NCBI GenBank assembly: GCA_945905835.1
Contig: CAMDQJ010000002.1
Coordinates: 14,684-78,683, forward strand
DNA length: 64,000 nt
Source of the DNA: Asaia bogorensis
GTDB lineage: Bacteria; Pseudomonadota; Alphaproteobacteria; Reyranellales; Reyranellaceae
Reading direction: 5' to 3'
In this document: piece by piece, positions 1 to 64,000 of the stretch
Numbering within the stretch: position 1 is the stretch's first letter
Layout: each line of letters opens with the position of its first letter
Translations under genes and position numbers: made by a program
The notes under the pieces: generated by a model
What the model saw: only the letters and a program-made list of their open reading frames with translations
Told to the model about the DNA's origin: nothing
Database searches by the model: none

Positions 1-2217
1 GGCCGGCCCGGGAAAATCGAGATCATCGCCACCAAGCCGCTGGTCACCCAGCGCGACCTGGCGCTCGCCTATTCGCCGGGCGTCGCCGCCCCCTGCCTGG
101 AAATCGCCAAGGATCCCTCGACCGCTTACGACTACACCGTCCGCGGCAACCTCGTCGCCGTGATCTCCAACGGCACCGCGGTGCTGGGCCTGGGCGACAT
201 CGGTGCACTCGCTAGCAAGCCGGTAATGGAGGGCAAGGCCGTCCTCTTCAAGCGCTTCGCCGACGTCGACTGCATAGACATCGAGGTCGACACCAAGGAC
301 GTCGACCAGTTCGTCAATTCCGTGCGCTATCTCGGGCCGACCTTCGGCGGCATCAACCTCGAGGACATCAAGGCGCCGGAGTGCTTCATCATCGAGCAGC
401 GCCTGCGCGAGCTGATGGACATCCCGATCTTCCACGACGACCAGCACGGCACCGCCATCGTCTCCGCCGCCGGCCTGATCAACGCCCTGCATCTCACCGG
501 CCGCAATCTCAAGGACATCAAGATGGTGGTGAACGGCGCCGGGGCGGCGTCGATCGCCTGTATCGAGCTGGTCAAGGCGATGGGCCTGCCACACGAGAAC
601 GCCATCCTCTGCGACACCAAGGGCGTCATCTACCAGGGCCGCACCGAGGGCATGAACCAGTGGAAGAGTGCCCACGCCGTGCGCACCAAGGCGCGCACGC
701 TGGAAGAGGCCATGAAGGGCGCCGACGTGTTCTTCGGCCTCTCGGTCAAGGGCGCCGTCAGCAAGGAGATGGTCCAGTCTATGGCCGCCAAGCCGATCAT
801 CTTCGCCATGGCCAATCCCGACCCCGAGATCACGCCCGAGGATGTCCGCTCGGTGCGCGCCGACGCCATCATCGCCACCGGCCGCAGTGATTACGCCAAC
901 CAGATCAACAACGTGCTGGGCTTCCCCTATATCTTCCGGGGCGCCCTCGACGTGCGCGCCAGCACCATCAACGAGGAGATGAAGGTCGCTGCAGCAGAGG
1001 CTTTGGCCAAGCTCGCGCGTGAGGACGTGCCGGACGAGGTCGACCGCGCCTATTCTGGCCGCCGCCTGCGCTATGGGCCGGAATACGTCGTGCCGGTGCC
1101 GTTCGATCCGCGCCTGATTTCGGCGGTATCGTCGGCGGTGGCACAGGCCGCGATGGATTCCGGCGTGGCGCGCAAGCCGATCGCCGACATGGCGGAATAC
1201 CGCCGCATGCTGTCGGGCCGCCTCGATCCGACCAGTCACTGGCTGCAAAGCCTGTTCGAGCAGGTGAAGGCCAACCCGCGCCGCATCGTCTTCGCCGAGG
1301 GCGAGGAGGAACGCGTCATCCGCGCCGCCGTGATGTACCGCGACAACGGCTACGGCACGCCGATCCTGATCGGCCGCGAGGAGCAGGTGTGCGAGACCAT
1401 GAAGGGGCTCGGCATCAACGACGCCTCGGGTCTGGAAATCCATAATGCGCGGCTGTCGACGCGCAACGCGCCCTACACCGACCTCGTCTACAAGCGCCTG
1501 CAGCGCGACGGCTATCTGCGCCGCGACGTGCAGCGCATGGTCAACCAGGGCCGCAACGTGTTCGGCGCCTGCATGGTCGCCGCCGGCGACGCCGACGGCA
1601 TGGTAACCGGCATCACGCGGCGCTTTCCCGAGTGCTACACCGATGTGAAGCGCGTGATCGACGTGCAGCCCGACAAGGTGCCGATCGGCTATTCCATCGT
1701 CGTGGCGCGCCACGGCACGGTGTTCCTGGCCGACACCTCGATCAACGAGACGCCGACGGCCGAGCAGCTCGCCACCATCGCCCGCCAGATGGCGCGCAAC
1801 GCCCGCCAGATGGGCCACAATCCGCGCGTGGCGTTCCTTAGCTTCTCCAATTTCGGCAGCCGCGAGATCGAGCGCATCGACCGCATCCGCAAGGCGATCC
1901 GCATCCTCGAGGCCGAAAAGGTGGATTTCGAGTTCGACGGTGAGATGCAGGCCGACATGGCGCTCGACTACGAGCTGCTGTGCGAAACCTATCCGTTCTG
2001 CCGCCTGACCGGCCCGGCCAATGTGCTGATCATGCCAGGCCTGCATTCGGCGCATATTTCATCGCGCTTGCTGCAGCGGCTGGGCGACGTCACGGTGATC
2101 GGCCCTGTCATCGACGGCCTCGCCAAGCCAGTGCAGATCGTCCAGATGGGCGCTACCGTGAGCGACCTCGTCAATCATGCAGCACTTGCCGCCTACGCCT
2201 CGTTGAGTGGGAGATAA
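1..2217 (+). CDS. maeB: NADP-dependent malic enzyme (malic enzyme domain plus phosphate-acetyltransferase-like domain), 5' end outside window
   Basis: Frame 1 is open from base 1 ([32 protein letters not shown]...) and runs into the 160..2217 ORF. It has the VVNGAGAA dinucleotide-binding motif and a long C-terminal PTA-like region. TAA stop at 2215-2217. Confidence 0.9.
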
Positions 2218-2227
2218 CCGGTCGACT

Positions 2228-2330
2228 GTCGTCCTGAGGCGCAGCCGAAGGACCTCGCCGAACGACCATACACGGACCGCGGAACCGAGCGCGCGGCTAG
2301 CGTGAGATCCTTCGCTTCGCTCAGGATGAC
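2228..2330. repeat. Inverted pair of REP-like palindromic units flanking a ~47-bp spacer
   Basis: GTCGTCCTGAGGCGCAGCCGAAGGACCTC at 2228-2256. The reverse complement of 2304-2330 reads GTCATCCTGAGCGAAGCGAAGGATCTC. Same TCCTGAG...CGAAGGA core as the element at 61438-61480. Lies in the maeB/amidohydrolase intergenic region. Confidence 0.5.
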
Positions 2331-2348
2331 ATTTGGAGGAGCCCCCTC

Positions 2349-4070
2349 ATGTACGATCTGGTGATTCGCGGCGCGACTATCGTCGACGGCCTGGGACACG
2401 AACCGAAACGAGCCGACCTCGCGGTCAAGGACGGCCGCATCTCCAACATCGGCGACATCAAGGAAAAGGGCACGGAAAACGTCGACGCCGGGGGCCTCAC
2501 GCTGTCGCCCGGCATCATCGACGTGCACACCCACTACGACGCGCAGATCACCTGGGATCCCACCCTCTCGCCCTCGCCGTCGCTCGGCGTGACCACGGCG
2601 GTGATGGGCAATTGCGGCTTCGGCATCGTACCGGCGCCGCCCAGCGCGCGCGACCTCGTGATCCGCAATCTCTCGGTCGTCGAGGGCATGGACCTCGACG
2701 CGCTGCGCACCGGCATCCAGTGGGATTTCGAAAGCTTTGGCGACTACATGGGCTCGCTGCGCAAGCGTGGTCCCTACGCCAATGTCGCCGTGCTGGCCGG
2801 CCATTCGACCATCCGCACCGCCGTCATGGGCGAGGCTGCCTCGCAGCGCGCCGACGCCACGCCCGAAGAGCTCGCCAAGATGAAGGCGATGGTGGCCGAT
2901 GCCATGGCCAATGGTGCCATCGGGCTCGGCGCTTCCTACTCGCTCAACCATTCCGGCTTCGGCGGCGTGCCGATGCCGTCGACCATCGCACCGATGTCGG
3001 AACTCGATGCACTCGTTGGCGCCATGGGCCCGCGCGGGCGCGGCGTCATCGCCATTGCCTCGGGCATCAAGACGCCGGAAGAGCTCGAGCCGATGGCCGC
3101 CAAGCACGGCCGGCCGTTTTTCCAGGGCACCGGCATGGCGATGTACAATGAGCAGGAGCCGGCGCGGGCCATGCGCATCTTTGATGCCTGCGCCGCCGCC
3201 ATCCGCCGCGGCAACGGGCTCTACGTCCAGATCCCCTGTCAACCGCTGTCCTTCGACTTCACGATGGCCAACGCCTATCCGTTCTACAGCCACTCGGTGT
3301 TCGACCCGATCAAGGCCTACACGCCCGAGCAGTTGAAGGGCGTTTATCGCGACCCGTCATGGCGCGCCAAGTTCCGCGAAAATGCCAAGAACCCGCGGCC
3401 GGGCATGATCTTCCAGGGCAACTGGGATCGCGTGATGGTGGCGGTGGCCCAGAAGGAATCGAACGCCAAGTACGTCAACCGCTACCTGCATGAGATCGCC
3501 AAGGCCGAGAGCCGCGATCCGCTCGACATCATGCTCGACATCAGCCTCGACGAGAATCTCGAGACGGCCTTCCTCGGCCGCTTCCTCAATGTCGGCGACG
3601 ATGGCGTGGCCAAGCTCCTGAAGCACGAGGCGGGCGTCGTCGCTCTCTCCGATGCCGGCGCCCATCTCATCTATATGTGCGATGCCGGTTTTGGCCTGCA
3701 CTTCCTGGCGCGCTGGGTGCGCGAGCGCGGCGACTTCGACATCGTCGAGGGCATCCGCCGCCTCACCAGCCATCCCGCCGGCCTCTACGGTATCAAGGAC
3801 CGCGGTTACATCGCGCTCGGCGCCCATGCCGACCTGCTGCTGTTCGATCCCGCCACGGTGGGTGTGGGCCCGGCGCAGCGCGTCGCCGACCTGCCGGGCG
3901 GCGGGCGGCGCACCATCCGCAAGCCCACGGGCGTGCATGGCGTGTTCTGCAACGGCATCAAAACCTTCGACGGCAAGGACTATCCGCGCCACGCCAAGGG
4001 CCCCGGCCAGGCGCTCGACAAGTTCAACTCCTCGCAGGGGCAGCACGCGGCGGCCATCGCGGCGCAATAA
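2349..4070 (+). CDS. N-acyl-D-amino-acid deacylase family amidohydrolase (D-aminoacylase-like)
   Basis: 573-aa ORF. N-terminus MYDLVIRGATIVDGLG...GIIDVHTHYD is typical of the metal-dependent amidohydrolase/D-aminoacylase family. GGAGGA Shine-Dalgarno sequence precedes the ATG. Confidence 0.8.
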   Translation: MYDLVIRGATIVDGLGHEPKRADLAVKDGRISNIGDIKEKGTENVDAGGLTLSPGIIDVHTHYDAQITWDPTLSPSPSLGVTTAVMGNCGFGIVPAPPSARDLVIRNLSVVEGMDLDALRTGIQWDFESFGDYMGSLRKRGPYANVAVLAGHSTIRTAVMGEAASQRADATPEELAKMKAMVADAMANGAIGLGASYSLNHSGFGGVPMPSTIAPMSELDALVGAMGPRGRGVIAIASGIKTPEELEPMAAKHGRPFFQGTGMAMYNEQEPARAMRIFDACAAAIRRGNGLYVQIPCQPLSFDFTMANAYPFYSHSVFDPIKAYTPEQLKGVYRDPSWRAKFRENAKNPRPGMIFQGNWDRVMVAVAQKESNAKYVNRYLHEIAKAESRDPLDIMLDISLDENLETAFLGRFLNVGDDGVAKLLKHEAGVVALSDAGAHLIYMCDAGFGLHFLARWVRERGDFDIVEGIRRLTSHPAGLYGIKDRGYIALGAHADLLLFDPATVGVGPAQRVADLPGGGRRTIRKPTGVHGVFCNGIKTFDGKDYPRHAKGPGQALDKFNSSQGQHAAAIAAQ

Positions 4071-4185
4071 CCGAGGCGCTTTTCGCCCCGGCAGAGCCGG
4101 TATATAATTTCAACCAACGAGACAAACAAACCGTAAATTCCACGCCTCGGGAGGGTGCACGGTCGGCCAGCACTGGCGCACCTAC

Positions 4186-4284
4186 ATGCCTTACCTATTC
4201 GCACTGATGGTCGGGCTGATGCTGATCATCCTGTTCCCGCAGCTCTCGCTGTTTCTGCCGAGGAGCGCAGGCTTTATCAAATAG
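4186..4284 (+). pseudogene. 3'-terminal stub of a TRAP transporter large permease (DctM-like)
   Basis: 32 codons, MPYLFALMVGLMLIILFPQLSLFLPRSAGFIK*, resemble the last transmembrane helix and tail of DctM. No upstream coding continuation and no dctP or dctQ nearby. Confidence 0.45.
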
Positions 4285-4326
4285 GCCGGGTTCTCACCGG
4301 AATCTCACCCAGGTGAGACGCCTCCG

Positions 4327-4348
4327 ATGCCGATGGTATCGGCATTTT
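4327..4348 (+). terminator. Hairpin plus T-run, possible intrinsic terminator left behind the TRAP stub
   Basis: ATGCCGAT-GGT-ATCGGCAT stem-loop followed by TTTT. Confidence 0.4.
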
Positions 4349-4449
4349 ACGCGATGCGTCTTACTTTCTCACCGCTCCCCCCTGGAAGTCTGCCAATGCA
4401 GACTTTGAGCGGCTTCCGGTTGAGCGGCCTCATCAGGGACGGGTGCGCT

Positions 4450-5385
4450 TTAGGCCAAACCGCCCCGCGCGCGGCGGGCTTCGTAGGCCTGCAGGTGGGC
4501 ATAGGCGAAGCGCAGGTTGGGAGCGGCGATGCCGGCCTTGCGGGCGCGGGCCAGCATGTCTCCGACGACCTGCTTGCTCTCGACCGGCCCGCCCTTCTCG
4601 AGATCGCCCAGGATCGAGGCGACGATCCTGGAACCCTTGGTCGTGACGCCGGTCTTGATGGCGGTCAGGGCCTTCTCGCTGGGGTCATGGCCTTCCGACG
4701 CGGCGACCTTGCGGCATTCCTCCAGCGTCTCGAGCATGATCGCCTCGCCCTCGTCGGCCGAAAGAATGTCGCCCGCGTTGCCGCGCATCGACGTGCACAT
4801 AGCGGCGAAGGCGGCCAGCATGATCCACTTATCCCAGAGATCCTGGTTGATGTTGGGATTCAGCCCGCCGTCGATGCCGGCATTCTTGCAGGCGGCATCG
4901 AGCTCGACCAGCGAGGGCCGACCGGGCGTGCCGTCGCGCTCGCCGAAGGAAACGCCGGCAAACGGCGTGGAGTGCATGATCTCGCCATTGGGGCCCAACT
5001 TGCTGCCGATGCGGGCGAGGCCGCCCGCGACTTTCGCCGCGCCGAACTTCTTGTCGAGCGTGGCGAAATGGGCGTGGCCGTTCAGCATCGGCACGATGGT
5101 CGTGTTCGGCCCGACCGCGGCGGCGATCGACTCGATCGCCGAATCGAGGTCGTAGGCCTTGCAGGCGAGGATGACGATATCGTAGGGCCCGCCCTCGCTG
5201 CCCTTGGTCACGACCTTGACCGGCAGGACGGCGTCGCCTTTCGGGCTTTTAACGACCAGGCCCTCCTTGCGCACTTTCTCGGCACGCTTCTCGCGCAGCA
5301 AAAAGGTGATGTCGGTGCCGCTCTGGTGCATGCGCGCACCCCAGTAACCGCCGACCGCGCCGGCGCCGAGAATGAGAACTTTCAC
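4450..5385 (-). CDS. 2-dehydropantoate 2-reductase family (ketopantoate reductase, PanE/ApbA)
   Basis: VKVLILGAGAVGGYWGARM Rossmann N-terminus. GTG start at 5385 preceded by AAGGAG. The longer ORF up to 5505 has a non-protein-like N-terminus. Confidence 0.8.
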   Translation of the reverse strand: MKVLILGAGAVGGYWGARMHQSGTDITFLLREKRAEKVRKEGLVVKSPKGDAVLPVKVVTKGSEGGPYDIVILACKAYDLDSAIESIAAAVGPNTTIVPMLNGHAHFATLDKKFGAAKVAGGLARIGSKLGPNGEIMHSTPFAGVSFGERDGTPGRPSLVELDAACKNAGIDGGLNPNINQDLWDKWIMLAAFAAMCTSMRGNAGDILSADEGEAIMLETLEECRKVAASEGHDPSEKALTAIKTGVTTKGSRIVASILGDLEKGGPVESKQVVGDMLARARKAGIAAPNLRFAYAHLQAYEARRARGGLA

Positions 5386-6074
5386 GTCTTGCTCCTTTGA
5401 GCGATCCACTCGGCGAGCCAGGTCGCGAGGTCGTCGGTCTGGTGATGGATATGATCGAGGTTGATGTCGGCCGCCCGCTTCACGCTCTCCTCGGTGCGGA
5501 TCCACACCGTGCGCATGCCCATGTCGTGAGCGGGCTTCAGGTTGATGGCGATGTCGTCGGCGAACGCGGCCTTCTTGGGATCAACGCCGTGCCGACGCAC
5601 CAGCTCGTCGTAGATCTGCCGGTGCGGCTTGGGCCAGTAGTCGCCGGCCACGATGTCGAAGATCGCCTCGAAATGGTGGGCGACGCCCAGCCGTTCCATG
5701 ACGCGCTCGGCGTGCGGCACGTCGCCGGCGGTGAAGATGATCTTTCGGCCGGGCAGCCTGGCCAGCGACGCCTCGAGGTCGGGACTGTGCGGCACCGGCG
5801 AATAGTCGATGTCATGGACGTAGTCGAGGTAGTGCTTGGGGTCGACGCCGTGCAGGCTCATCATGCCGCGCATCGAGGTCCCGTAGTCGCGCCAGTACTG
5901 CTTCTGCACGACCCGCGCCTGTTCCGGTGTCACCTTCAGCCAGTCCGAGATATAGGCGCCGATGCGCACGTCGATCTGGGCGAACAGGTTGCAGCGCGCC
6001 GGATAGAGCGTGTTGTCGAGGTCGAACAGCCAGACGTCGGGGTCGTGGGCGGGGCCGGCAACGGGGAAAATCAT
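5382..6074 (-). CDS. Pyrimidine 5'-nucleotidase (HAD superfamily)
   Basis: WLFDLDNTLY HAD motif I and a family-typical length of 230 aa. The stop overlaps the downstream GTG start (GTGA). Confidence 0.8.
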   Translation of the reverse strand: MIFPVAGPAHDPDVWLFDLDNTLYPARCNLFAQIDVRIGAYISDWLKVTPEQARVVQKQYWRDYGTSMRGMMSLHGVDPKHYLDYVHDIDYSPVPHSPDLEASLARLPGRKIIFTAGDVPHAERVMERLGVAHHFEAIFDIVAGDYWPKPHRQIYDELVRRHGVDPKKAAFADDIAINLKPAHDMGMRTVWIRTEESVKRAADINLDHIHHQTDDLATWLAEWIAQRSKT

Positions 6075-6098
6075 GGGGATTTTGATTAACCGGCAGCC

Positions 6099-7241
6099 GT
6101 GCGCTTGTCGAGGTGGCGGAATATAAAGGAAGCAATGGATTCGCTGATCGCCCGTCTGCAGAGCGACCCTACCTTCGCCGCCCTCGCCGGCGCGACCGGG
6201 CTCGCGATCGTGCTGCTTCTGCTGGTTTTCTGGCGGCTGGGCGAGCGCAGCGGCGAAACGGCGCGCGACCTGGCGCGGCGGCGCGACGAGGCCGACACCA
6301 TGCGTGAGCAGCTCGCCCTGGCGCTCAGCCAGCAGGCCGAGACCATGCAGCGTGTCGAGCGCTCGCTGCGCGAGCAGGAACAGTCGCTGGGCAAGGTGGT
6401 CGACGAACGGCTCGACCGTACCGAGAAGGCGACGGGCGCCATCGTCACCGACCTGCGCGAGCGGCTGGTGCGCATCGACGAGGCGCAGAAGAAGATCGGC
6501 GAGCTCTCGACCCAGGTCGTCAACCTGCAGGAGGTGCTGTCCAACAAGCAGGCGCGCGGCGCCTTCGGCGAGGTGCAGCTGAACGACCTGGTGCAGACCG
6601 CGCTGCCCGCCGAGGCCTACGAATTCCAGTGCACGCTCTCGACCGGCGTGCGCGTCGACTGCCTGTTGAAGCTGCCCAATCCGCCGGGCTCAATCGCCAT
6701 CGACGCCAAGTTCCCGCTCGAGAGCTACCGCATCCTGCGCGCGATAGAGCCGGGCGACCCGCAATTGATGGCCGCCGCGCAGCGCGGCTTCCAGCAGGCG
6801 ATGCGCAAGCACATCAACGATATCCGCGACAAGTACATCATCGCCGGCGAGACGGCCGAGTCGGCGCTATTGTTCCTGCCGTCCGAGGCGATCTACGCCG
6901 AGCTGCATGCAAACTATTCAGGCGTGATTGACGAGTCCTACCGCGCCCGTGTCTGGATCGTCTCGCCCACCACCATGATGGCGACACTCAACACCGTGCG
7001 TGCCGTGCTGAAGGACGTGCGCATGCGCGAGCAGGCCGGGGCGATTCAGAAGCTGGTCGGATTGCTCCTGGCCGATGTGCGTCGACTGGATGACAGAGTC
7101 GAGAAACTGAAAACGCACTTCGGCCAGACCGAAAAAGATTTGCGCGAGGTCGATGTCTCGGCCGACCAGATCATCCGCCGTGGCGAACGCATCCTCGCCA
7201 CCGATCTCGGCGAGGAACAAACCGTTCTGCCGAAGCCCTAG
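6099..7241 (+). CDS. rmuC: DNA recombination protein RmuC
   Basis: N-terminal TM segment and coiled-coil, then [10 protein letters not shown]...[10 protein letters not shown], characteristic of RmuC. TAG stop at 7239-7241. The start could instead be the internal ATG at 6135. Confidence 0.85.
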
Positions 7242-8114
7242 TCCCAGGGTCCGCGGCGCGGCGTCTGCGGGGCGGCGCCCCACGGGTTGGCCGCAGGACG
7301 CGGCGGCGGCGCAGCCCGCACCTGGCCCGCCATCGCCTGCAGGCGCGCGATGCGCTCCTCCATCGGCGGATGAGTCGAGAACAGGCCCGACAAGCCGCCC
7401 ATCGCTGCCCGCGGGTTGGCGATATAGAGGTGCGCCGTTGCGGGGTGGGCTTCGGCCACCCGATTGGGGATCTGCTGCGCGCCAGCCTGCAGCTTGGCAA
7501 GTGCGGAGGCAAGCCGCAGCGGCTGGCCGCTGATCTCTGCGCCCATGCGGTCGGCCTCATATTCGCGGCTGCGGCTGATCGCCATCTGCACCAGAGAGGC
7601 AGCGAGCGGCGCCAGGATCATGGCGGCGATGGCCGCAATCGGGCTCACCGGCGGCCGGCCGCTCGCGCCGCGGCCGCCGCCGAACACAACCCACCGAAAC
7701 TCGTGAGCATGCCGATGGCGCCCACCAGCGTGGCGGCAATCGTCATGGTGAGCGTGTCGCGATGGCGGACGTGGCCGAGCTCATGCGCCATCACGCCGGT
7801 GATTTCCTCGCGGCTGAGGTTGCGCAGCAGGCCGGTGGTCGCGGCGACCGCGGCATGCTCGGGATCGCGGCCGGTAGCGAAGGCGTTGGGCTGATCCTCG
7901 TCGATCAGATAGACGCGCGGCATCGGCAGGCCGGCACGCTGCGCTAGGTCATGCGCAGAACCATCTTGTCGGAGTTCCAGTAGGCGAAGAGGTTCATGCC
8001 GAGGGCCACGACCAGGGCCAGCACCAGGCCGACTTCGCCGCCCAGCAGATAGCCGACGACCAGGGGAAAGCCGGTCAGGCCGGCAAGCAGGACAGCCGTG
8101 CAAAAGTAGTTCAT
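7238..8114 (-). pseudogene. htpX: Zinc metalloprotease HtpX, disrupted (internal deletion, in-frame stop, second frame change)
   Basis: Three pieces in different frames. (1) 8114..7944: [26 protein letters not shown]...[13 protein letters not shown] then TAG. (2) ...[25 protein letters not shown]...[14 protein letters not shown] (HEXXH), part of ORF 7645..8103. (3) ORF 7238..7687: ...[24 protein letters not shown]...[10 protein letters not shown]. Confidence 0.8.
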
Positions 8115-8173
8115 GGCGGGAAAGGTCGTCCTGAACTGTAGCGCATCAAGGCCATAGCCCGCATCATGGGATC

Positions 8174-9496
8174 ATGCGCACAGATATCTTCCATCCCGAT
8201 TTTAAGGCCCAACCCTGGTGGTGGGAAGCCTGGACACCCAACACCGCTTTGTCGGTGGATCCGCCGGCACGGACCGACATCGTCATCGTTGGCGCCGGCT
8301 ATGGCGGGCTCTCGACGGCACTGGAGCTGCGGCGCAACGGCGTCGGCGCCGTCGTGCTGGAGCGCGGCGTGTTCGGCATCGGCGCCTCGACGCGCAATGG
8401 TGGCATGATCTCGGGCGGCACCAATTTGGGCAAAGGCCTTGGCGGCAAGAGCCCGATCGCCGACGAGTTCGAACGCAACAAGGCGGCCCTCATGGGCGCC
8501 GGCGCCGACTCGCTCACCGTGCTGGAGGACATCATCGCCCGCGAAGGCATCGAGTGCGGGCTACACAAGAACGGCCGCTTCGTCGGCGCCTGGACGCCCC
8601 GGCATTACGCCGACCTTGCGACCAAGGTCGAGACCTATAACAAATACGCCAATGCCGGCGCCTCGATGGTGCCGCGCGAACGCCAGCGCGAGTTCATCGC
8701 CTCGGACTATTATTACGGCGGCATGCATGCGACGCGCGCCGGCCACCTCCATCCCGCGCTCTACTACAAGGGCTTGCTTGAAGCCGCGCACAAGGCCGGC
8801 GCGATCCTCTGCGCCAATGTCGAGGCCGAGCGCATCGAGAAGACTTCCAAGGGTTGGCGCGTGCTGACCTCGAAGGGTCCGGTCGAGTGTCGCGAGGTCG
8901 TGGTCGCGACCAATGGCTACACCGGTGATCTGACGCCACGTCTGCAGCGGAGAGTCGTGCCGGTGGCCAGCCACATCATCGCAACCGAGGAGCTGCCCGA
9001 GCATGCCAGCAAGCTGATCCCCGAAATGCGCGCCGTCGGCGACACCAAGCGGGTGCTGACCTATTACCGGCCCTCGCCCGACGGCAAGCATCTGATCTTC
9101 GGCGGTCGCGCGCGCTTCACCGCCGCGCCGCCGGAAGTGAGTGCGCCGGCGCTCTACCAGTACATGATCGACCGTTTCCCGCAGCTCGACGGCATCCGCA
9201 TCACCCACGTGTGGACGGGCAATGTCGCCTTCGCGATCGACTACATGCCGCACATGGGCACCGACGAGGGCCTGCACTACCTGCTGGGCTGCAATGGCAC
9301 CGGCGTGGCCATGATGACCTATCTCGGCACGCAGACCGCCAAGAAGATCGCCGGCGGGCGCAACGAGCCGATAAACCCGCTCGACGGCCGCGCGTTCCCC
9401 GAACACCCGCTTTACAACGGCGATCCATGGTTCCTGCCGATGATCGGCGCCTGGTATCGCACCCGCGACTGGATCGACCGCCGGCTGGCCGGCTGA
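8174..9496 (+). CDS. FAD-dependent oxidoreductase (DAO family, gamma-glutamylputrescine-oxidase-like)
   Basis: DIVIVGAGYGGLSTALEL FAD-binding motif. 440 aa. Confidence 0.8.
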   Translation: MRTDIFHPDFKAQPWWWEAWTPNTALSVDPPARTDIVIVGAGYGGLSTALELRRNGVGAVVLERGVFGIGASTRNGGMISGGTNLGKGLGGKSPIADEFERNKAALMGAGADSLTVLEDIIAREGIECGLHKNGRFVGAWTPRHYADLATKVETYNKYANAGASMVPRERQREFIASDYYYGGMHATRAGHLHPALYYKGLLEAAHKAGAILCANVEAERIEKTSKGWRVLTSKGPVECREVVVATNGYTGDLTPRLQRRVVPVASHIIATEELPEHASKLIPEMRAVGDTKRVLTYYRPSPDGKHLIFGGRARFTAAPPEVSAPALYQYMIDRFPQLDGIRITHVWTGNVAFAIDYMPHMGTDEGLHYLLGCNGTGVAMMTYLGTQTAKKIAGGRNEPINPLDGRAFPEHPLYNGDPWFLPMIGAWYRTRDWIDRRLAG

Positions 9497-10885
9497 TGGC
9501 CGCAGCGCTGCCCGTCACACTGGCCAACATGCGCGCAGCGGCGGCGCGCATCAAAGGCCCCGTCGTGCGCACGCCGACCCTGCGCAGCGAGACGCTGTCG
9601 CGCCTGGCCAAGGCCGAGATCTGGCTGAAATTCGAGAACCTGCAATTCACCGCCTCGTTCAAGGAGCGCGGGGCGCTGAACACGCTGCTGCAGCTCTCGG
9701 CCGATGAACGAAAACGCGGCGTCATCGCCATGTCGGCCGGCAACCACGCCCAGGGCGTCGCCTATCACGCAGGCCGGCTGGGCATTCCCGGTCACCATCG
9801 TCATGCCCTCCTTCCCGCCCAACACCAAGATCAAGCACACCCGCTATCACGGCGCGCGCGTCGTGCTTTTAGGCGACACGCTGTCGGAGGCCGGCGCCGA
9901 GGCGCATCGCCTAGCCGATAAGGAGCATCTGGTATTCGTGCATCCCTACGACGATCCGCGGATCATCGCGGGCCAGGGCACGACGGCGCTGGAAATGCTC
10001 GAGGACGCGCCGGAGCTCGATACGCTGATCGTTCCCGTGGGCGGTGCCGGGTTGATCGCGGGCTGCGCTGTTGCGGCCACGGCGCTAAAGCCCGACCTGC
10101 AGGTGTTCGGCGTTGAGGCCGCCGGCTATTCGGCGCTGCGCCTGCTCCTGGCCGGCGAGGCCGTGGCAGTCGGCGGCGACACTATCGCCGAGGGCATCGC
10201 CGTGCGCGATATCGGTGCGCTGCCGCTAGCCATCTGCACGGCGTTGGTGACCGCTGTCGTGAGCGTCGGCGAGGTCGCGATCGAGCGCGCGGCAACGCTT
10301 TAGCTGGAAGTCGAGAAGACGGCGCCCGAGGGCGCCGGCGCGGCCGGCCTCGCTGCCCTGCTGAGCCATGGCGAACGCTTCAAGGGCCGTCGGGTCGGGC
10401 TGGTGCTGAGCGGCGGCAACATCGACACCCGCCTGCTGGCCTCGGTGCTGCTGCGCGTGCTGGTGCGCGACGGCAGGATCGTGCGGCTGTGGCTGATGAT
10501 CGGCGACCTGCCGGGCCAGCTCGCCCGGGTCGCCGGCCTGATCGGCAAGGCCGGCGGCAATATCGTCGAAGTGCAGCACCAGCGGCTGTTCCGCAGCGTG
10601 GTTGCCAAGGCGACCGAGCTCGATGTCACCGTCGAGGCGCGCGGCCGCGGCCAAGTCCGCGAATTGGTGGTGGCGCTGGGGGGCGAGGGATTTACCGTCC
10701 GCGTCCTCGAGGGGCGAACGTCTAATCCAATGCTTCGGCAGCACCCGAAGCATGGCCCGGCCAGAACCGGCGACGGTGGCAGGGATCCGACCGGGAGACT
10801 GCCATGGCCATCACCGTCTTCATCCGTTGCCAGCTCGACCCCTTCAAGCGCGCCGCCTTCGAGGTCTATGCCCAGCGCTGGCTGA
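9496..10885 (+). pseudogene. PLP-dependent threonine ammonia-lyase/dehydratase, disrupted by a frameshift and an in-frame TAG
   Basis: MAAALPVTLANMRAAAARIKGPVVRTPT...FENLQFTASFKERGA...SAGNHAQGVAYHAGRLGIP in frame 1. It continues as VTIVMPSFPPNTKIKHTR... in frame 2 (shift near 9785-9795). TAG at 10301-10303 separates ...VAIERAATL from LEVEKTAPEGAGAAGLAALL. An ACT-like C-terminus follows. The 3' end is uncertain. Confidence 0.8.
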
Positions 10886-11111
10886 AGATCATCCCGAGAT
10901 GCGACAGCGATCTGTTGGGCTACTGGATGCCGCACGAGGGCACCAACAACATCGCGGTGGCGCTGATCTCGTTCGAGAGCCTGGCCGCCTACGAGGCCTA
11001 CCGGGACCGCTTGAAAGCCGATCCCGAGAGGGGTCGGCCAACTTCCAGAGTGCCGAGGAGCAACGGTTCATTCTTGCCGAGGAGCGAACCTTCCTGCAGC
11101 CTGTCGCCTAG
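10804..11111 (+). pseudogene. NIPSNAP family protein, frameshifted near codon 75
   Basis: [32 protein letters not shown]...[17 protein letters not shown] in one frame. The expected C-terminus [26 protein letters not shown] is in another frame (end of ORF 10602..11111). The switch is near 11025-11035. Confidence 0.65.
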
Positions 11112-11162
11112 CGGCGATCCACCGCCTAACAACCCACCGCGGCGCGGGCTACAAGACCGGCC

Positions 11163-12776
11163 ATGGCTGCAGCCCCGAGCTACGTCCCGTCGCCCACGCC
11201 CGACCTCGCCCGCCTCCAGCGGGCGTTGATTTCGGTCTCCGACAAGACTGGGCTGATCGAGCTGGGCAAGGCGCTGGCGGGACACGGCATCGAGATCCTC
11301 TCGACCGGCGGCTCGGCCACGGCGCTGCGCGAGGCCGGCCTGAAAGTCGTCGAAGTGAGCGACCACACCGGCTTTCCCGAGATCATGGGCGGCCGGGTGA
11401 AGACGCTGCAGCCCTCGATCCATGGCGGCATCCTGGCGCGCCGCACCGACGCCGGACACCAGAAGGCGATGTCCGACCACAGGATCGCCGGCATCGATCT
11501 CGTCGTGGTGAACCTCTACCCGTTCGAGGCCACTGTTGCGCGCGGCGCGGACTTCCCTACCTGCGTCGAGAACATCGACATCGGCGGGCCGGCGCTGATC
11601 CGCGCCGCCGCCAAGAACCACGATTTTGTGACCGTCGTCGTCGATCCGGCCGACTACGCCTCCGTTACGGCCGAACTCTTGGCCAACAAGGGTGCCACGA
11701 CCTTGGTGCTGCGCCGCAACCTCGCGGCCAAGGCCTATGCGCGTACGGCGGCCTACGATGCGGCGATCGCCAGCTGGTTCGCCGCGCAGGCGGGTGATGC
11801 TTTCCCGCAGCGGCTGACGATCTCGGCCGAGCGCGTGCAGACGCTGCGCTACGGCGAGAATCCGCATCAGCAGGCGGCCTTCTACTCGGACGGCAGCAAG
11901 CGCCCCGGCGTCACGACCGCGCGCATGGTCCAGGGCAGGGAGCTCTCCTACAACAACATCGGTGACGCCGAGGCGGCCCTTGAATGCGTGGCGGAGTTCG
12001 CCCAATCGGCGGTGGTCGTCGTCAAGCACGCTAATCCCTGCGGCGTGGCGATGGGCGCCGACCAATACGGCGCCTATCTAAAAGCTTATGCCTGCGATCC
12101 CGTTTCGATCTTCGGCGGCATCGTGGCGCTGAACCGCAGGCTCGAGGCCCGGACTGCAGCCGACCTGGCGAAGCTCTTCCTCGAGGTTGTGATCGCGCCC
12201 GACGCGACGCCAGAGGCGCTGGCGATCCTCGCCACCAAAAAGAACGTGCGCGTGCTGCTGGTCGGCAACCTGCCCGATCCGACAACGACCGGCATGACCC
12301 TGAAGAGCGTGGCCGGCGGCTATCTTTTGCAGACCCGCGACAACGGCCACATTAAGAAGAGTGAGTTGAGGGTCGTGACCAGGCGGGCACCGACGGCCAA
12401 AGAGCTCGACGATCTGCTGTTTGCCTTCACCGTCTGCAAGCACGTGAAGTCCAACGCCATCGTCTATGCCAAGGATGGAGCGACGATCGGCGTCGGCGCG
12501 GGCCAGATGAACCGCCGCGATTCTTCGCGCATTGCCGCCATCCGCGCCGCCGAAGCGGGCAAGCTGGCGGGGCTGAAGCAAAGCCCGGCGGTCGGCAGTG
12601 TCGTGGCGTCCGATGCGTTCTTTCCCTTTGCCGACGGGCTTTTGGCCGCGGCGGAAGCCGGCGCCACGGCGATCATCCAACCCGGCGGTTCGATGCGCGA
12701 CCAGGAAGTCATCGACGCCGCCGACGCCGCCGGCCTTGCCATGGTCTTCACCGGGATGCGCCACTTTCGGCACTGA
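11163..12776 (+). CDS. purH: Bifunctional AICAR transformylase / IMP cyclohydrolase
   Basis: 537 aa. [19 protein letters not shown]...[11 protein letters not shown]-like domain and a full-length AICARFT domain. Confidence 0.95.
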
Positions 12777-13962: not shown

Positions 13963-13964
13963 CT

Positions 13965-50781: not shown

Positions 50782-51801
50782 TCAATCCACGCGAATCAGC
50801 AGCCTTCCGGTGTTTTCGCTCCGGTAAAGCATGGCAACGGCGTCAGGCGCCGCATCGAGGCCCTCCAGCACGTGCTCGCTGTAGGCGAGCCGGCCTTGCC
50901 GCAGCCAGCCTGCGAGTTCCGCCAGCGCCTCGCCGTAGCGCGCCTGGTAGTCGAACAGCAGGAAGTCCTGCATGCGGGCACGCTTGACCAGCAGGTGACG
51001 CTCGACACGCGGCCCCTCCGGCCATGGCGCCCAGCTCTGCAGCGCTGCGGTGCCGCAGATCGCCACCCGCGCCCCGATCGCGAGCTGACGCAACACCGCG
51101 TCGCTGATTGTGCCCGAGGTGTTGTCGAAATAGACGTCGATGCCCTTGGGGCAGGCGGCCGACAGCGCCGCGTCGAGATCGGCGCTTCGATAGTCGATCG
51201 CCTCGTCGTAACCGAAGTCGCGCTTGCACTGGGCGACCTTGTCCGCCCCGCCGGCGATGCCGACGGTGCGGCAACCTTTGATTTTGGCGATCTGTCCCAC
51301 GCAGGAGCCGACCGAACCAGCGGCGGCCGACACGACCACGGTGTCGCCGGCCTTGGGCTGGCCGATCTCGAGCAGGCAGAAATAGGCGGTGACGCCGTTT
51401 GTGCCCATGACGCCGAGCGACGCCGACAGCGGCAGGTCGCGCTCCCCGACGCGGCGCGTGACGTTGGCGCCGGTGCTGATGGCGAAGCGCTGCCAGCCGA
51501 ACATGCCGGTCACCAGCTCGCCTTCGCGCCACTCGGGATGGCGCGAGGCCACGATCTCGCCTGCGGCGAAGGCGCGCATGACGTCGCCCACCGGCACCGG
51601 CGGCGAATAGTTCGCAACATCGTTCACCCAGCCGCGCATGGCCGGCTCGACCGAGAGGAAGCGGTTGGCGACCAGGAACTCGCCGTCGGCAAGATCGGCG
51701 ACCGGCGCTTCCGACAGGGCGAAATGGGCGGCCTACGGCACGCCCACCGGACGGCTCTTGAGGATGACCCGGCGGTTCGTCAGATTTCGCGGGCTGGTCA
51801 T
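50782..51801 (-). pseudogene. NADP-dependent oxidoreductase (medium-chain reductase, YncB/PTGR-like) with an in-frame TAG
   Basis: MTSPRNLTNRRVILKSRPVGVP, then TAG at 51733-51735. The same frame continues AAHFALSEAPVADLADGEFLVANRFLSVEPAMRGW... with the AAAGSVGSCVGQIAK NADP motif. Confidence 0.75.
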
Positions 51802-51907: not shown

Positions 51908-52279
51908 ATGGAAATTGTCAGCCAGACGCCCCGTCCCGCCCTCGTCGAACCGCCGATGCGGAAGGCCAAGTTCGCCATCGGTCAGGTGGTGAAGCACCGC
52001 GTCTACCCGTTCCGCGGCGTGATCTTCGACGTCGACCCGGTGTTCGCCAATACCGAGGAATGGCTGTCGTCGATCCCCGAGGAAGTCCGTCCGCGCCGCG
52101 ACCAGCCGTTTTATCACCTGCTGGCCGAGAACGCGCAGACGACCTACGTGGCCTACGTCTCCGAGCAGAACCTGCTGCCCGACGAGACCGGCACGCCGGT
52201 GTCGCATCCGCAGGTGCCGCACTTCTTCAAGGAAATGAAGCGCGGCCACTACGTCTCGCGCGTCCGCGCGTTGCACTAA
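51908..52279 (+). CDS. hspQ: Heat shock protein HspQ (hemimethylated-DNA-binding YccV-like)
   Basis: [24 protein letters not shown]...[10 protein letters not shown]. Confidence 0.8.
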
Positions 52280-52947
52280 AACTTCAGAGAAGCGCCTTGG
52301 CGACCTGATCGACGGTCGCCGGTCCAGCCGACGATGGCGCCTTGGGCGCGGATCATGTCGAGTGTCGCCTTCTTGAATTCCGAGAAGTAGCTCTCGGTCG
52401 CGTCCTCGGCCAGCAGGCAGTCGAAGCCGCGGTCGTTGGCTTCGCGCATTGTGATTTGCACGCAGACTTCCGTCGTGACGCCGGCGAACACGAGATGGGT
52501 GATCTTGCGCTGGGCCAGGATGTCGCCGAGCGGCGTGGCGTAGAAGGCACCCTTGCCCGGCTTGTCCAGGACGATCTCGCCCGGCTTGGCCGCCAGCTCG
52601 GGAATGATGTCGGCGCCAGGCTCGCCGGAAATCAGGATACGGCCCATCGGGCCGGGATCGCCGATGCGCAGCGTGGGATTGCCGCGCGAGCGCTTGGCGG
52701 GCGGGCAGTCCGACAGGTCGGGCTTATGGCATTCGCGCGTATGGATGATCGTGAGGCCGGCTTTGCGGAAGGCTTCGATCAGCCGCGCGGTCGCCGGAAT
52801 AATCGCCCGCAGCAGGCTCACATCGTTGCCGAAGCCTTCACCGAAGCCGCCGGGCTCGATGAAGTCGCGCTGCATGTCGATCACGATCAACGCGGTGTGC
52901 GCGGAGTCGAAGGTGAAGTCGAACGGCTGGGCGGCGATGGTCTTCAT
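52276..52947 (-). CDS. Cysteine hydrolase (isochorismatase family)
   Basis: [11 protein letters not shown]...[10 protein letters not shown] catalytic Cys motif. The 3' end may be frameshifted (see findings). Confidence 0.8.
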
Positions 52948-52961
52948 CAGTGTCCCGCCCC

Positions 52962-54039
52962 TCAGTGTCCCGCCATGGCGCGTCCGATGGCGCCGACATC
53001 GGCGGTCTTGCCGTCGGTCTGCAGCGCCAGCTTGCCGTCGAACATGACGACGATGCGGTCGGAGAGCTGCAGGATCTCGTCGAGATCCTCGCTCACCAGC
53101 AGCACGGCGGCACCCCGGTTGCGCGCCTGCACGATGCGAGCGCGGATTTCGGCGACGGCGGCGAAGTCGAGGCCGAAGCAGGGGTTGGCCACGATCAGGA
53201 GATCGCCGTCGCTGGAAAGCTCGCGTGCCAGCACCGCGCGCTGCACGTTGCCGCCGGACAGCGCCTTGATCGGCGCATCGGGGCCCGGCGTCGTCACGCG
53301 GTAGGCGTCGATGAGCTTGCGCGCCGTTTCGCGCATCGGCGAGCGCTTCAGCCGCACGCCGTCGGGCGAGGCGGGTGCCTGGTCGAATGAGCGCAGCGCC
53401 ATGTTCTCGGCCACCGACATTTCAGCGACGCAAGCGTTGCGCAGCGGTTCCTCGGGCAGGCAGGCGATCTTGTGGCGGATCATCTCGGCCCGCTTGGCGG
53501 TATAAACCTCGCCATGGACCAGCATGCGGCCGGCTTCGGCATCGCGCTGGCCGGCCAGCGTTTCCACCATCTCGCGCTGGCCGTTACCCGACACGCCGGC
53601 GACGCCGACGATCTCGCCGGCGCGGACGTCGAGATCGAGCGCATCGACGGCGAGCTGGCCGACATGGTCGGCGACGCTGAGGCCTTCCAGCTTCAACACG
53701 ACCTTGCCCGGCATCATCGTCTCGCGCTCGACCGTGCTGCGCGTGTCGCGGTGGCCAACCATCATTTCGGCCATCAGGTCGTTGTCGAGTTCCGTCGTCG
53801 GCCGGATGTCGACCAGCTTGCCGCGGCGCAGGATCGTGACGGTGTCGCAGAAGGCGTTCACTTCACGGAACTTGTGCGTGATGGTGACGATGGTGACCTG
53901 GCCGGCTTGCGTCAGCTTCTTCAACGTGGACAGAACCTCGTCGGCGTCGTCGGGCGTCAGCACCGAGGTCGGCTCGTCGAGGATCAGGATATTTCGCTTC
54001 AGGTACAGCCCGGCGGCCGATATTGAACTTTTCGATCAT
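52962..54039 (-). pseudogene. Double-NBD ABC transporter ATPase lacking most of its first nucleotide-binding domain
   Basis: The ATG at 54039 (MIEKFNI...) is out of frame by 1 nt with the body. The body begins ...AAGLYLKRNILILDEPTSVLTP (Walker B of NBD1), then has a complete NBD2 ([25 protein letters not shown]). Walker A, Q-loop and signature of NBD1 are absent. Total length is not a multiple of 3. Confidence 0.7.
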
Positions 54040-54123
54040 GTCTCTTCCCCCGCTCTTCTCCGGCCAGTTGCGGCCAGGGAGCGGCGGAGCAAGGAGCGTG
54101 CCAGCCCCTCTAAAGGGCCGTTT

Positions 54124-54828
54124 TCAGTGGATATCCTCGGAAGCTGCAAACGCTTTGCGCAGCACCTCGATGCCGAAGCCCTTTTTCTTGGCGGCGTCGA
54201 GGATGACCTTTTCCTTGCGCGCCAGCAGGTCGATGGCCGCCGGCAGCTTGGCCGCCAGCTCCATCGGGATGACCACGGCGCCGTGGCGGTCGGCGTGGAT
54301 GAGGTCGCCATGGACCACGGTCATGCCGAAGATGTCGACCGGCATGCCCCAGCCCTCGACATGCACGAAGGCGTGGCTCGGCCCGACCTTGCCGGCGAGG
54401 ATCGGGAAGCCCTTGGCCAGCACGGTGAGGTCGCGCACCGAGCCGTTGGTGACGCAGCCCAGCACGCCCAGGCCGCGGTGCACGGTGGAATTGACCTCGC
54501 CCCACATGGCGCCGGTGCCGGGATTGGAATCGAGATCCTGGATGATGGCGACCGTCGGACCGTCGTCGCTCACGACGTACTCGTACCAGCCGACACGCTT
54601 GGCCTTCTTCTCGGCGGCCGAGCCGACGGCCGGCTGGGCGGCGCGGATGATGCCGGTGCGGGCATAGCCCACCATCGGCAGCGCGTCGGGCTCGGTCGGA
54701 TGAAGATGCTGCGTCGTGAAGCCGGTGGCGGTGCGAACCCCGCGCGCCTCCTCCAGCGCATTGCAGATGGTCGGCGTGTCGACGGCACGCAGCGCCTCGA
54801 ACAGTTTCTTCTGGGTCTTGGCGTCCAT
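54124..54828 (-). CDS. RraA family protein (HMG/CHA aldolase / oxaloacetate decarboxylase-like)
   Basis: ...TPTICNALE...GAMWGEV...GCVTNGSVRD... 234 aa. Confidence 0.8.
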   Translation of the reverse strand: MDAKTQKKLFEALRAVDTPTICNALEEARGVRTATGFTTQHLHPTEPDALPMVGYARTGIIRAAQPAVGSAAEKKAKRVGWYEYVVSDDGPTVAIIQDLDSNPGTGAMWGEVNSTVHRGLGVLGCVTNGSVRDLTVLAKGFPILAGKVGPSHAFVHVEGWGMPVDIFGMTVVHGDLIHADRHGAVVIPMELAAKLPAAIDLLARKEKVILDAAKKKGFGIEVLRKAFAASEDIH

Positions 54829-54838
54829 TGTCCCCTCC

Positions 54839-55645
54839 TCAGTTCAGTGCAAACGGAAAGTACTTGTCGTTGAATTTCTTGTAGGTGCCGTCGCCCAGGA
54901 TCTCGCCGATCGCCTTGTTGAAGGCGTCGCGCAGCTTGGCGTCTTCCTTGCGCAGGCCGGCGGCGACGCCGATGCCCAGCGTCTGCGGGTCCTTGATGTC
55001 CTGGCCGGAAATCTCGCAGCATTCGCCTTCCTTCTTCTGCGTCCACAGCCAGAGCTGCACCTTGTCGCCGAACACCGCGTCGACCTCGTCCCTGGCCAGC
55101 GCCCCGCGTGCTTCGGCCAGCGTGGCGTAGCGCTTGATCTGGGCGGAGCGGCGGAAGCTCTTGTCCAGCCAGTCGGCGTGCATGGAATCCTTCTGCACGC
55201 CGATGCGCTTGTTGCGCAGCAAGGTCGCCGGGCCGTCGAAGGCCTGGCCCTTCTGCGCCACGAACGCGCCGGGCGAGAGGTAATAGCGACGCGAGAAGGA
55301 CAGCCGCTTGCGCCGGTCGGGTGTCACCTCCATCGACGACATGATGATGTCGAACTTCTTGTCCAGGAGACCGGGGATCAGCTCGTCCCACTTGTAGACG
55401 GCGAACTCGCACTCCGCCTTCATGCGCTGGCAGGCATCCTGGGCAAGTTCCATCTCGAAGCCGTTGGGCAGGCCCTTGCGGTCGAGCGAGTTGAACGGCG
55501 GAAACGCCGCCTCGGTGGCGATGGTGATCTTGAAGGCGGGTGGCGCGAACGGCGACTTGGCCGGTGGACGCGCCGGCGGGCGCTGCTGCGCCAGCGCGAG
55601 CGAAGCCGCCGTCACCAGCAGGAGCGCAAGCGCCAGTCGTTTCAT
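54839..55645 (-). CDS. Periplasmic amino-acid-type ABC substrate-binding protein (SBP family 3)
   Basis: Signal peptide MKRLALALLLVTAASLALA. ...GFEMELAQDAC...FDIIMSSMEVTPDR... Confidence 0.8.
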   Translation of the reverse strand: MKRLALALLLVTAASLALAQQRPPARPPAKSPFAPPAFKITIATEAAFPPFNSLDRKGLPNGFEMELAQDACQRMKAECEFAVYKWDELIPGLLDKKFDIIMSSMEVTPDRRKRLSFSRRYYLSPGAFVAQKGQAFDGPATLLRNKRIGVQKDSMHADWLDKSFRRSAQIKRYATLAEARGALARDEVDAVFGDKVQLWLWTQKKEGECCEISGQDIKDPQTLGIGVAAGLRKEDAKLRDAFNKAIGEILGDGTYKKFNDKYFPFALN

Positions 55646-59344: not shown

Positions 59345-59533
59345 GTGCCGTTCAGCCACAGCTTCGTGGTGCCGTCGCACAATCAGGCCAAGTTCCTTCC
59401 CGCCACCCTCGACGCCCTGCTCGCCCAGAACGAGCCGTCCGAGATCGTCATCTCGGAAGATTTCTCGACCGACGAGTCGCCCGCGATCGCGCGCGCCTAC
59501 GCGGAAAAACATCCCGGCCGCTCAACCGCCTGA
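59345..59533 (+). pseudogene. 5'-terminal stub of a family-2 glycosyltransferase
   Basis: FSHSFVVPSHNQAKFLPATLDALLAQNEPSEIVISEDFSTDES is a typical GT2 N-terminus but terminates after 62 codons. Confidence 0.5.
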
Positions 59534-63275: not shown

Positions 63276-63286
63276 ACGGAGGAAAC

Positions 63287-63529
63287 ATGAGCATTCTCGG
63301 CATCATCGTCATCGGGCTGCTGATCGGCTTGGTCGCCCGCTTCATCACGCCGGGCCCCAATCCGCGCGGCATCATCGTCACCATGGTGATCGGCATCGTC
63401 GGCGCCTTCATCGCGACCTACGGCGGCCAGGCGCTCGGCCTCTACCAGGTCGGCCAGCCCGCGGGCTTCATCGGCTCTGTGCTGGGTGCGGCCGTCCTGC
63501 TGGTGCTGTTGCGGCTGTTCGGCCGTTAA
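63287..63529 (+). CDS. GlsB/YeaQ/YmgE family stress-response membrane protein
   Basis: MSILGIIVIGLLIGLVARFITPG... 80 aa. GGAGGA Shine-Dalgarno sequence. Confidence 0.8.
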   Translation: MSILGIIVIGLLIGLVARFITPGPNPRGIIVTMVIGIVGAFIATYGGQALGLYQVGQPAGFIGSVLGAAVLLVLLRLFGR

Positions 63530-63984
63530 GCCACGCGATAGATGAAGTAGCGGTCCTTCGGCGCGCCCGGAGGATTGCGCAGGCGCCGCCAGCGGGCGAC
63601 GCTCAGCGCCTGGTTGGCCAGCACGTAGCAGCCCTTGGCCGCAAGCGTGTCGAGCGCAGGACCAAGCCACACGCCCATCGCCACGTTGTCCCGGCGAACG
63701 CCGGTCCCCAGATCGGTATGGATCAGCGCGGCGGTGGCGCCGAGCCGCCGGAGCGCGCGCGGAATCGATTTGTGCGCGTCGCCCAGGAACAGGCGGTCGT
63801 CGGGCGGGATGCAATCGGGATGCGCCGCCACCTTGCGCTCGAAGACGTAGATGTCGCGGCGGGGAAAAAGCGTGCGCAGGTGATCGTAGGTGCGGCCGTT
63901 GCCAAGGCCGACTTCGAGGATCGGACCCGGCGACTTGGCGATGCGATCGGCGAGAAAGTTCAGGCAATCGCGCTGCGCCTGCAT
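63526..63984 (-). CDS. Small class I SAM-dependent methyltransferase-like protein (start may lie further upstream, near the window edge)
   Basis: ILEVGLGNGRTYDHL Gly-rich SAM-binding-like motif. The reading frame stays open upstream of the ATG at 63984. Confidence 0.55.
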   Translation of the reverse strand: MQAQRDCLNFLADRIAKSPGPILEVGLGNGRTYDHLRTLFPRRDIYVFERKVAAHPDCIPPDDRLFLGDAHKSIPRALRRLGATAALIHTDLGTGVRRDNVAMGVWLGPALDTLAAKGCYVLANQALSVARWRRLRNPPGAPKDRYFIYRVA

Positions 63985-64000
63985 GCGCGCGATGAAACTG

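Follow-up and report, generated by a model that had tools for sequence, protein, structure and literature searches.

The stretch of DNA analysed here (hereafter the window) comprises 64,000 nucleotides of contig CAMDQJ010000002.1 from the bacterial assembly GCA_945905835.1 (positions 14,684 to 78,683 of the forward strand), and the subject of this text is the set of broken genes that it contains. Genes were mapped by codon bias and annotated with the Pfam-labelled gene calls of matching contigs together with Pfam and NCBIfam scans, and the sequence examined consists of the 64-kb window and ~14 kb of its flanks. In the window, 56 genes are intact and 13 loci are either disrupted or remnants (Table 1), i.e., ~69 gene units of which 19% are disrupted, in agreement with an earlier interpretation made from the letters alone (the sequence-only reading), which had put the share of disrupted or stub-like genes at about one in five. 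The remnants add up to ~7.8 kb, or ~12% of the window DNA, and intact coding sequence accounts for 82.6%. The genes purH, hemEH, glnD, mnmEG, parAB, holA, leuS, rph, hrcA and xthA, described by the same reading as full length, were confirmed to be so. Its statement that no insertion sequence (IS) or transposase lies behind the breaks was likewise borne out, as neither transposase, integrase nor other mobile-element Pfam families were found among the gene calls of the window and the matching contigs, and no repeat families were found in the window. A transfer RNA (tRNA) scan of the 64 kb gave no tRNA genes, and an Rfam scan of the same DNA gave no matches.

According to GlnD, HemN, RmuC and LeuS alike, the organism is a member of the genus Reyranella (Alphaproteobacteria), with the nearest other species at 83-89% protein identity (GlnD versus other Reyranella) and ~78-82% DNA identity. 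For LeuS, no relative falls between 88% and 99% identity, and at least 12 strain-level variants of 99.0-99.9% identity are spread over many assemblies; judged by these proteins, the window belongs to an uncultured Reyranella species. The nearest contig is a MEGAHIT-style metagenome contig of the ENA (ERZ27280328:k141_1513020, 167 kb), which is 99.9% identical to the window, encodes an exactly matching MnmG protein, and differs by 12-17 single-nucleotide polymorphisms (SNPs) per 21 kb and by a 1-bp indel at 52319. The G+C (GC) content is ~66% overall and ranges from 0.60 to 0.70 along the window.

Eleven of the 13 loci were shown to be broken against intact orthologs or family profiles, while the dctM and tetratricopeptide-type (TPR) stubs are probable only. 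The catalogue of the sequence-only reading stands for the most part, yet a cyclase remnant had to be added to it, and two of its entries, a membrane/RHH chimera at 12873-13331 and a possibly broken 3' end of the isochorismatase gene, were dropped for reasons given further below.

Table 1. Disrupted and remnant loci of the window, in order of position (aa, amino acids).
Locus	Position	Strand	State
dctM stub (TRAP transporter DctM C-terminus), probable only	4186-4284	+	32 aa, read in frame; too short for a Pfam match
htpX (zinc metalloprotease) pseudogene	7238-8114	-	spread over three frames; residues 57-70 missing through deletion; another frameshift near 7685
Threonine ammonia-lyase pseudogene	9496-10714	+	frameshift near 9787; in-frame TAG at 10301-10303
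NIPSNAP-family pseudogene	10804-11111	+	Pfam positions 4-73 of 102; frameshift near 11020, C-terminus in other frame
Secreted alpha/beta-hydrolase-like gene, ~420 aa	19550-20824	-	split by a single in-frame TAA at 20417-20419
Histidine phosphatase (His_Phos_1)	25432-26055	+	in-frame TAG at 25708-25710 parting Pfam positions 1-83 and 90-194
TPR protein C-terminal stub, probable only	30404-30625	-	weak TPR Pfam matches; one 44% tblastn match
GT41 glycosyltransferase C-terminal stub	~30617-30838	+	Pfam positions 496-542 of 543, E = 0.087; TGG to TAG at 30779-30781
Thioredoxin-like (CxxC) pseudogene	~37990-38393	+	three in-frame TGA codons at 38175-38186
Class III adenylate/guanylate cyclase remnant	48846-49050	-	between tim44 and the MT24 methyltransferase gene; 1,055-bp deletion, ~33 codons remain
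NADP-dependent oxidoreductase (CurA/PTGR-like)	50782-51801	-	TAG at 51733-51735, ~codon 23; otherwise full length
Sugar-type two-domain ABC ATPase 3' remnant	52962-54035	-	last ~348 aa, from Walker B of domain 1 to the end
GT2 glycosyltransferase N-terminal stub	59345-59533	+	62 aa; Pfam positions 1-53 of 168

Five of these loci, namely htpX, the threonine ammonia-lyase gene, the histidine phosphatase gene, the cyclase gene and the thioredoxin-like gene, are ancestral positional orthologs of genes in the relatives and are now dead. When orthologs were placed on the window with tblastn, htpX was found to be intact at 316-321 aa in four relatives, the ortholog exceeding the cut-off of NCBIfam NF002363, and the broken gene is divided identically (56+92+149 aa) in GCA_947486175.1 and in two ERZ1305449 contigs. 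The threonine ammonia-lyase orthologs of relatives are 408 aa long, with an NF005600 match above the cut-off, and in GCA_947486175.1 the pseudogene has suffered a further deletion of 895 bp (window positions 9730-10624). The histidine phosphatase gene is a single open reading frame (ORF) in 13 relatives; GCA_947486175.1 has CAG where the window has TAG, but carries a 17-bp deletion at 25531-25547 between short repeats, an example of a gene apparently knocked out independently in different strains. Between strains this gene shows 11 nonsynonymous and 0 synonymous differences. The thioredoxin-like pseudogene has 64% identity to a 144-aa positional ortholog in relative L172. The cyclase, the locus missing from the earlier list, is whole in the relatives whose locus reaches the slot, with an open frame of 504-505 codons in the three that were examined closely. 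It is retained but frameshifted in the conspecific loci L174, L176 and L177, and the 1,055-bp deletion, whose junction shows an overlap of 8 bp, is found in the window, L175, L178 and L179, so that the strains display a series of decay stages from a frameshifted gene through one in three pieces to the large deletion. As for the same split architecture in relatives, a refuting condition named along with the earlier list, the orthologs of these five genes are intact in all or most relatives, and split genes are absent from six annotated loci of relatives (~130 genes).

Roughly half of the lesions are found in lineage-specific DNA that fills variable slots flanked by conserved genes, and at these sites it is accessory genes that decay, not the ancestral core. 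The accessory genes concerned are the NADP oxidoreductase, the secreted hydrolase, the sugar-ABC/isochorismatase islet, DctM, NIPSNAP, GT2 and TPR/GT41. The GT2, NADP-oxidoreductase and NIPSNAP slots are empty in 34, 28 and two relatives, respectively: the gap between hrcA and ykuD is only 6-145 bp in the first case, the second slot is that between yccV and the lactamase-B gene, and in the third the lyase and purH are merely 46 bp apart in the two relatives that have both genes (L167 and L169). The oxidoreductase codon is TAG in the window, L175 and L180, while CAG, with an unbroken gene of 339 aa, is present in five other assemblies. The GT2 stub carries a polymorphic 1-bp indel at 59390, and the NIPSNAP region differs from that of a sister strain by 13 SNPs in 490 bp. 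The two ORFs of the hydrolase match residues 25-135 and 142-407, respectively, in an alignment with a homolog of 417 aa, and homologs of ~400-420 aa span both; the slot between tctC and glnD is variable in relatives, and no alpha/beta-hydrolase homolog was found there.

The TPR and GT41 stubs adjoin 5' end to 5' end, an arrangement to be expected if a single deletion had spanned two divergently oriented genes. The GT41 stub, identified from a weak Pfam match and from a reading of the sequence, is a distant paralog and no recent copy of the intact TPR-GT41 gene at 38378-40501, according to a by-eye comparison that used the C-terminus in its correct frame. The slot between holA and parB, where both stubs lie, is occupied by an encapsulin operon in one relative. 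Where relatives have the ABC ATPase gene, a further 5-6 kb of transporter DNA lies upstream, and the remnant itself differs between strains at 4 synonymous and 11 nonsynonymous positions. The slot from the SBP_bac_3 gene to yccV (window 52276-55645), compared over the hemN loci L087-L166, has three states in the genus: it may contain no gene, or rraA, or a sugar-ABC operon of 5-6 kb along with the isochorismatase gene. The window has both rraA and a decayed 3' end of this operon, and in relative L137 the slot likewise contains remnants of the ABC and isochorismatase genes.

A DctM protein (PF06808) of 243 aa is encoded in the same slot, between apbA and the amidohydrolase gene, on one conspecific contig. 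Relatives have rnk or lysE there, plus a second apbA, and the window lineage lacks the second apbA as well as the rnk or lysE gene. Beyond the left end of the window (L086, 16254-17294), a 346-aa ORF with BPD_transp_1 and DctM Pfam matches lies between maeB and mutS, two genes that are only 163 bp and 25 bp apart in relatives L167 and L169; it is likely a further chimeric transporter remnant outside the window.

The same old lesions are carried by near-identical contigs (~99.3%) of other assemblies, at least eight in number, which stem from three sources (the ENA ERZ2728xxxx series, ERZ1305449 and NCBI GCA_947486175.1). GCA_947486175.1 aligns to window positions 1-9729 and 10625-16978 without one indel, hence the htpX frameshifts, the 5' lyase frameshift, the NIPSNAP lesion and the dctM stub are all common to both, and independent assemblies also agree in the truncated ABC gene and in the stubs at 30.4-30.8 kb. 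None of the lesions sits in a homopolymer. The recurrence in independent assemblies and the non-homopolymer positions together indicate that the lesions are real and are not consensus errors. As the breaks recur, differ between co-occurring strains and evolve without constraint, they represent natural decay in progress and not sequencing error. Older lesions are fixed in the species and younger ones segregate among strains, for example the TAG codons of the NADP oxidoreductase and the histidine phosphatase.

Strain-specific deletions comprise events of 110, 895 and 1,055 bp, besides the 17-bp deletion of a sister strain; the junctions that were read show short repeats or overlaps, and all of the larger events whose polarity can be inferred from relatives are deletions. 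Among the single nonsense codons, four out of five are TAG (10301, 25708, 30779 and 51733) and the remaining one is TAA (20417). The ancestral codons that are known, CAG and TGG, were both lost through GC-to-AT changes, a pattern that fits mutation pressure from GC to AT in a genome of 66% GC. The cyclase deletion and the TAG/CAG alternative of the NADP oxidoreductase (48846-51735, ~2.7 kb) occur in all four combinations among eight assemblies (the window and L174-L180), and this indicates that the population recombines. Relative to GCA_947486175.1, the stretch that covers the parA end and the parB N-terminus (29437-29627) is hypervariable, with 14 gap positions over 29437-29455 and ~25 SNPs in 190 bp, and parB differs at 24 synonymous and 6 nonsynonymous positions; the stretch looks like an imported recombination tract.

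Compared with sister strains, the ratio of nonsynonymous to synonymous polymorphism per site (pN/pS) is 0.87 in the pseudogene pieces (17 synonymous, 42 nonsynonymous differences) versus 0.26 in the intact genes (133 and 103; Fisher p = 2e-4). The pseudogene fragments evolve neutrally and constraint on them has been lost. Synonymous diversity (pS) between the strains is ~1.5%. In a tree of seven proteins the longest distance from root to tip is that of the window lineage (0.398 versus a median of ~0.354, ~12% above), whose distance to the outgroup is within the range of the others. As a base rate, a homology-based flag for short or split genes was applied alike to the window and to other Reyranella loci, where it marks 35 of 1102 genes (3.2%; mostly contig-edge or nanopore artefacts), a background of ~1-3%; in the window it marks 3 fragments, representing 2 loci, among 34 evaluable genes. 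A crude comparison of coding density and gaps with relatives gave no discrimination, because pseudogene fragments keep their codon bias.

These observations are probably best explained by a natural, recombining population of an uncultured Reyranella that is losing many dispensable genes by ordinary mutation, without the help of mobile elements. A gene is at the outset inactivated by a point nonsense change or a small frameshift, the dead gene then drifts neutrally, and deletions from 17 bp to several kb whittle the pseudogene down to a stub. The cause may be a relaxation of selection after a change of niche or nutrient supply and not a clonal bottleneck inside a host. Two further statements of the sequence-only reading hold up well in this light: the lesions were said not to resemble simple homopolymer error, as their positions and their recurrence attest, and they were attributed to relaxed selection with a deletional bias, with which the elevated pN/pS of the fragments and the deletions of 17 to 1,055 bp agree. 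Its suggestion of early reductive evolution or recent host restriction, on the other hand, is not supported, in view of the recombining alleles, the GC content of ~66%, the modest acceleration of protein evolution and the accessory nature of about half of the lesions.

Several points weigh against the explanation by gene loss in a recombining population. A pN/pS of 0.26 for intact genes at a pS of ~1.5% is not diagnostic of relaxed selection genome-wide, and within the strictly syntenic set of evaluable genes the excess over background is small, two loci of ~33 versus ~1-3%. The ~9 kb beyond the right end of the window look intact, with no obvious lesion, and the evidence covers only the 64 kb and their flanks. 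Moreover, the slots with about half of the lesions are variable ones, and accessory-gene decay in such places is common in any bacterium; L137 also has ABC and isochorismatase remnants. It is possible, if less likely than not, that this is a free-living, recombining Reyranella in an early and IS-free phase of genome reduction, in which dozens of functions are being shed at once and a generalist of 6-8 Mb is turning into a smaller specialist. Genome-wide reduction and a local cluster of lesions are both compatible with these 64 kb, and the figure of 19% holds for the window.

Errors of assembly or consensus could in principle create false frameshifts and stops in a metagenome contig, and the short-read metagenome source, together with the few SNPs and the one indel that separate the window from the nearest contig, might be cited in favour of this. 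The explanation is effectively refuted by the same frameshifts and truncations in three sources, by deletions that measure from 40 bp to several kb, by the lack of homopolymer positions and by the neutral substitution patterns in the fragments. Even less credible is the assumption that the interrupted genes are still functional, be it through readthrough or reassignment of stop codons or because the proteins are naturally split. The amino acids expected where the stops lie are not the same (Gln, Trp, Phe/Tyr), the fragments have a pN/pS of ~1, sister strains delete parts of the same genes, and the window has no suppressor tRNA; the over-representation of TAG among the nonsense lesions, which might otherwise hint at recoding, is offset by the use of TAG as terminator in 16 of the 56 intact genes, and a reassignment of TAG was rejected for that reason. 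A genuine and conserved split does exist in the window, that of TPP_N and TPP_C. These are separate adjacent genes (178 aa and 204 aa, 13348-14501) in 26 of 26 relatives, a natural two-subunit arrangement without any lesion, in contrast to the true splits.

Two further alternatives accept the decay as real and differ in its setting. Early restriction to a host, whereby the small effective population of a recent obligate associate of a protist or animal would fix slightly deleterious inactivations genome-wide, is rather unlikely. The four combinations of lesion alleles and a pS of ~1.5% imply a diverse, recombining population, as do at least 12 LeuS variants (99.0-99.9%) across many assemblies; GC stays at ~66%, no IS expansion is seen, intact genes are still under purifying selection, and the acceleration behind the longest root-to-tip distance (0.398 versus the ~0.354 median), which would speak for such a lifestyle, is modest and relative to the outgroup within the range of other taxa. 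What remains in favour of host restriction is the dense local clustering of pseudogenes, including those of ancestral, housekeeping-type genes like htpX and threonine ammonia-lyase, and the fact that some Reyranella were obtained by amoeba co-culture. Two marks of recently host-restricted bacteria, proliferation of IS or other mobile elements and a clonal, bottlenecked population with little recombination, were not found. A better fit is an environmental population that recombines and that loses dispensable and accessory functions for reasons of niche. Ordinary turnover of the pangenome, by which the window would happen to hold several variable slots with failing acquired genes and the rest of the genome would have a normal, low fraction, is unlikely as well. 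It would account for the 2-34 relatives, depending on the slot, that have nothing at the GT2, NADP-oxidoreductase and NIPSNAP sites, the variation of the ABC and stub slots across the genus, the L137 remnants in the same slot and the 9 kb to the right without an obvious lesion, but the dead genes also include five ancestral, syntenic ones of which all or most relatives have intact copies, another likely transporter remnant lies just past the left end, and the ~130 genes in six loci of relatives are without splits.

Gene decay through nonsense changes, frameshifts and a deletion bias is textbook knowledge, and it has nearly always been described afterwards, in clonal pathogens and symbionts. 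Pseudogene-rich bacteria that became restricted to a host recently include Mycobacterium leprae, Sodalis glossinidius, Serratia symbiotica and Salmonella Typhi. With these the window shares the many inactivated genes, the mixture of nonsense, frameshift and deletion lesions, the erosion of dead genes by deletion and the preservation of informational genes, whereas it differs from them in having no IS proliferation and no apparent shift towards AT, in its diverse, recombining population and in its many polymorphic lesions. Horizontally acquired genes that have failed in free-living bacteria reportedly decay as well (Liu et al. 2004; Lerat and Ochman 2005), and the window resembles that situation in that about half of its lesions are in lineage-specific DNA between conserved neighbours, from which a deletion bias removes them. 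However, the pseudogene fraction of free-living genomes is usually 1-5%, and the density of ~19% in the window is several-fold above the usual, with conserved ancestral genes struck as well. Like the streamlined plankton (SAR11, Prochlorococcus and Nanopelagicales), the organism appears to be losing dispensable functions in a recombining environmental population; genomes of that kind are compact, low in GC and almost devoid of pseudogenes, whereas the window has 66% GC, an intact coding density of ~83% and many visible remnants. With 82.6% intact coding sequence and ~12% remnants it departs from the high coding density and the very few pseudogenes of a streamlined genome, and would be at most a very early stage of streamlining.

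A search of the literature on Reyranella pseudogenes returned nothing relevant. What sets this locus apart is that strains of one wild species which occur together show the same genes in successive states of decay, with recombining alleles and without confounding mobile elements. If it is truly a transitional state of genome reduction, such a state is rarely observed outside host-restricted bacteria, and if the density of lesions were genome-wide, public time-series assemblies would give the order of inactivation and deletion, the deletion rate and the balance of neutral and selected losses in nature. The loss of threonine ammonia-lyase and HtpX hints at an altered physiology, e.g., a possible dependence on external isoleucine or its precursors.

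Some loci of the window that had been, or might be, taken for lesions proved intact. The supposed chimera is an ORF of 152 aa (12873-13331) with a membrane N-terminus, which resembles a longer ORF in L010, and a CopG-like C-terminus; between strains it shows 5 synonymous changes and 1 nonsynonymous change, so that it looks functional and was not counted as a pseudogene. It is located at a junction of rearrangement next to purH: at the synteny breakpoint 12777-13347, purH is joined to TPP_C/TPP_N-hemJ-hemH-hemE-glnD, whereas in relatives it is followed by eamA, a helix-turn-helix (HTH) regulator gene, DAGK and RND genes. The isochorismatase gene is complete in the window (Pfam positions 1-170 of 175) and only its tail differs from that of relatives; among the sister assemblies, two have a 110-bp deletion in it and three a 1-bp deletion. 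The Exo_endo_phos gene (44533-45180), considered as a truncated gene, is intact, and the 55-aa ORF after leuS was rejected as an LptE remnant, being kept as ORFs of 57 aa and 61 aa in two relatives.

The divergent intergenic region between hemE and the DUF299 (kinase/pyrophosphorylase) gene (17017-17351) has a GC content of 0.54 and contains 8 GANTC sites within ~100 bp; simple patterns found neither a canonical DnaA box nor a CtrA site at 17017-17351. The minimum of the cumulative GC skew lies at ~18-20 kb of the window, and the region is probably the chromosomal replication origin, in a hemE-ori-DUF299 arrangement of the Caulobacter type.

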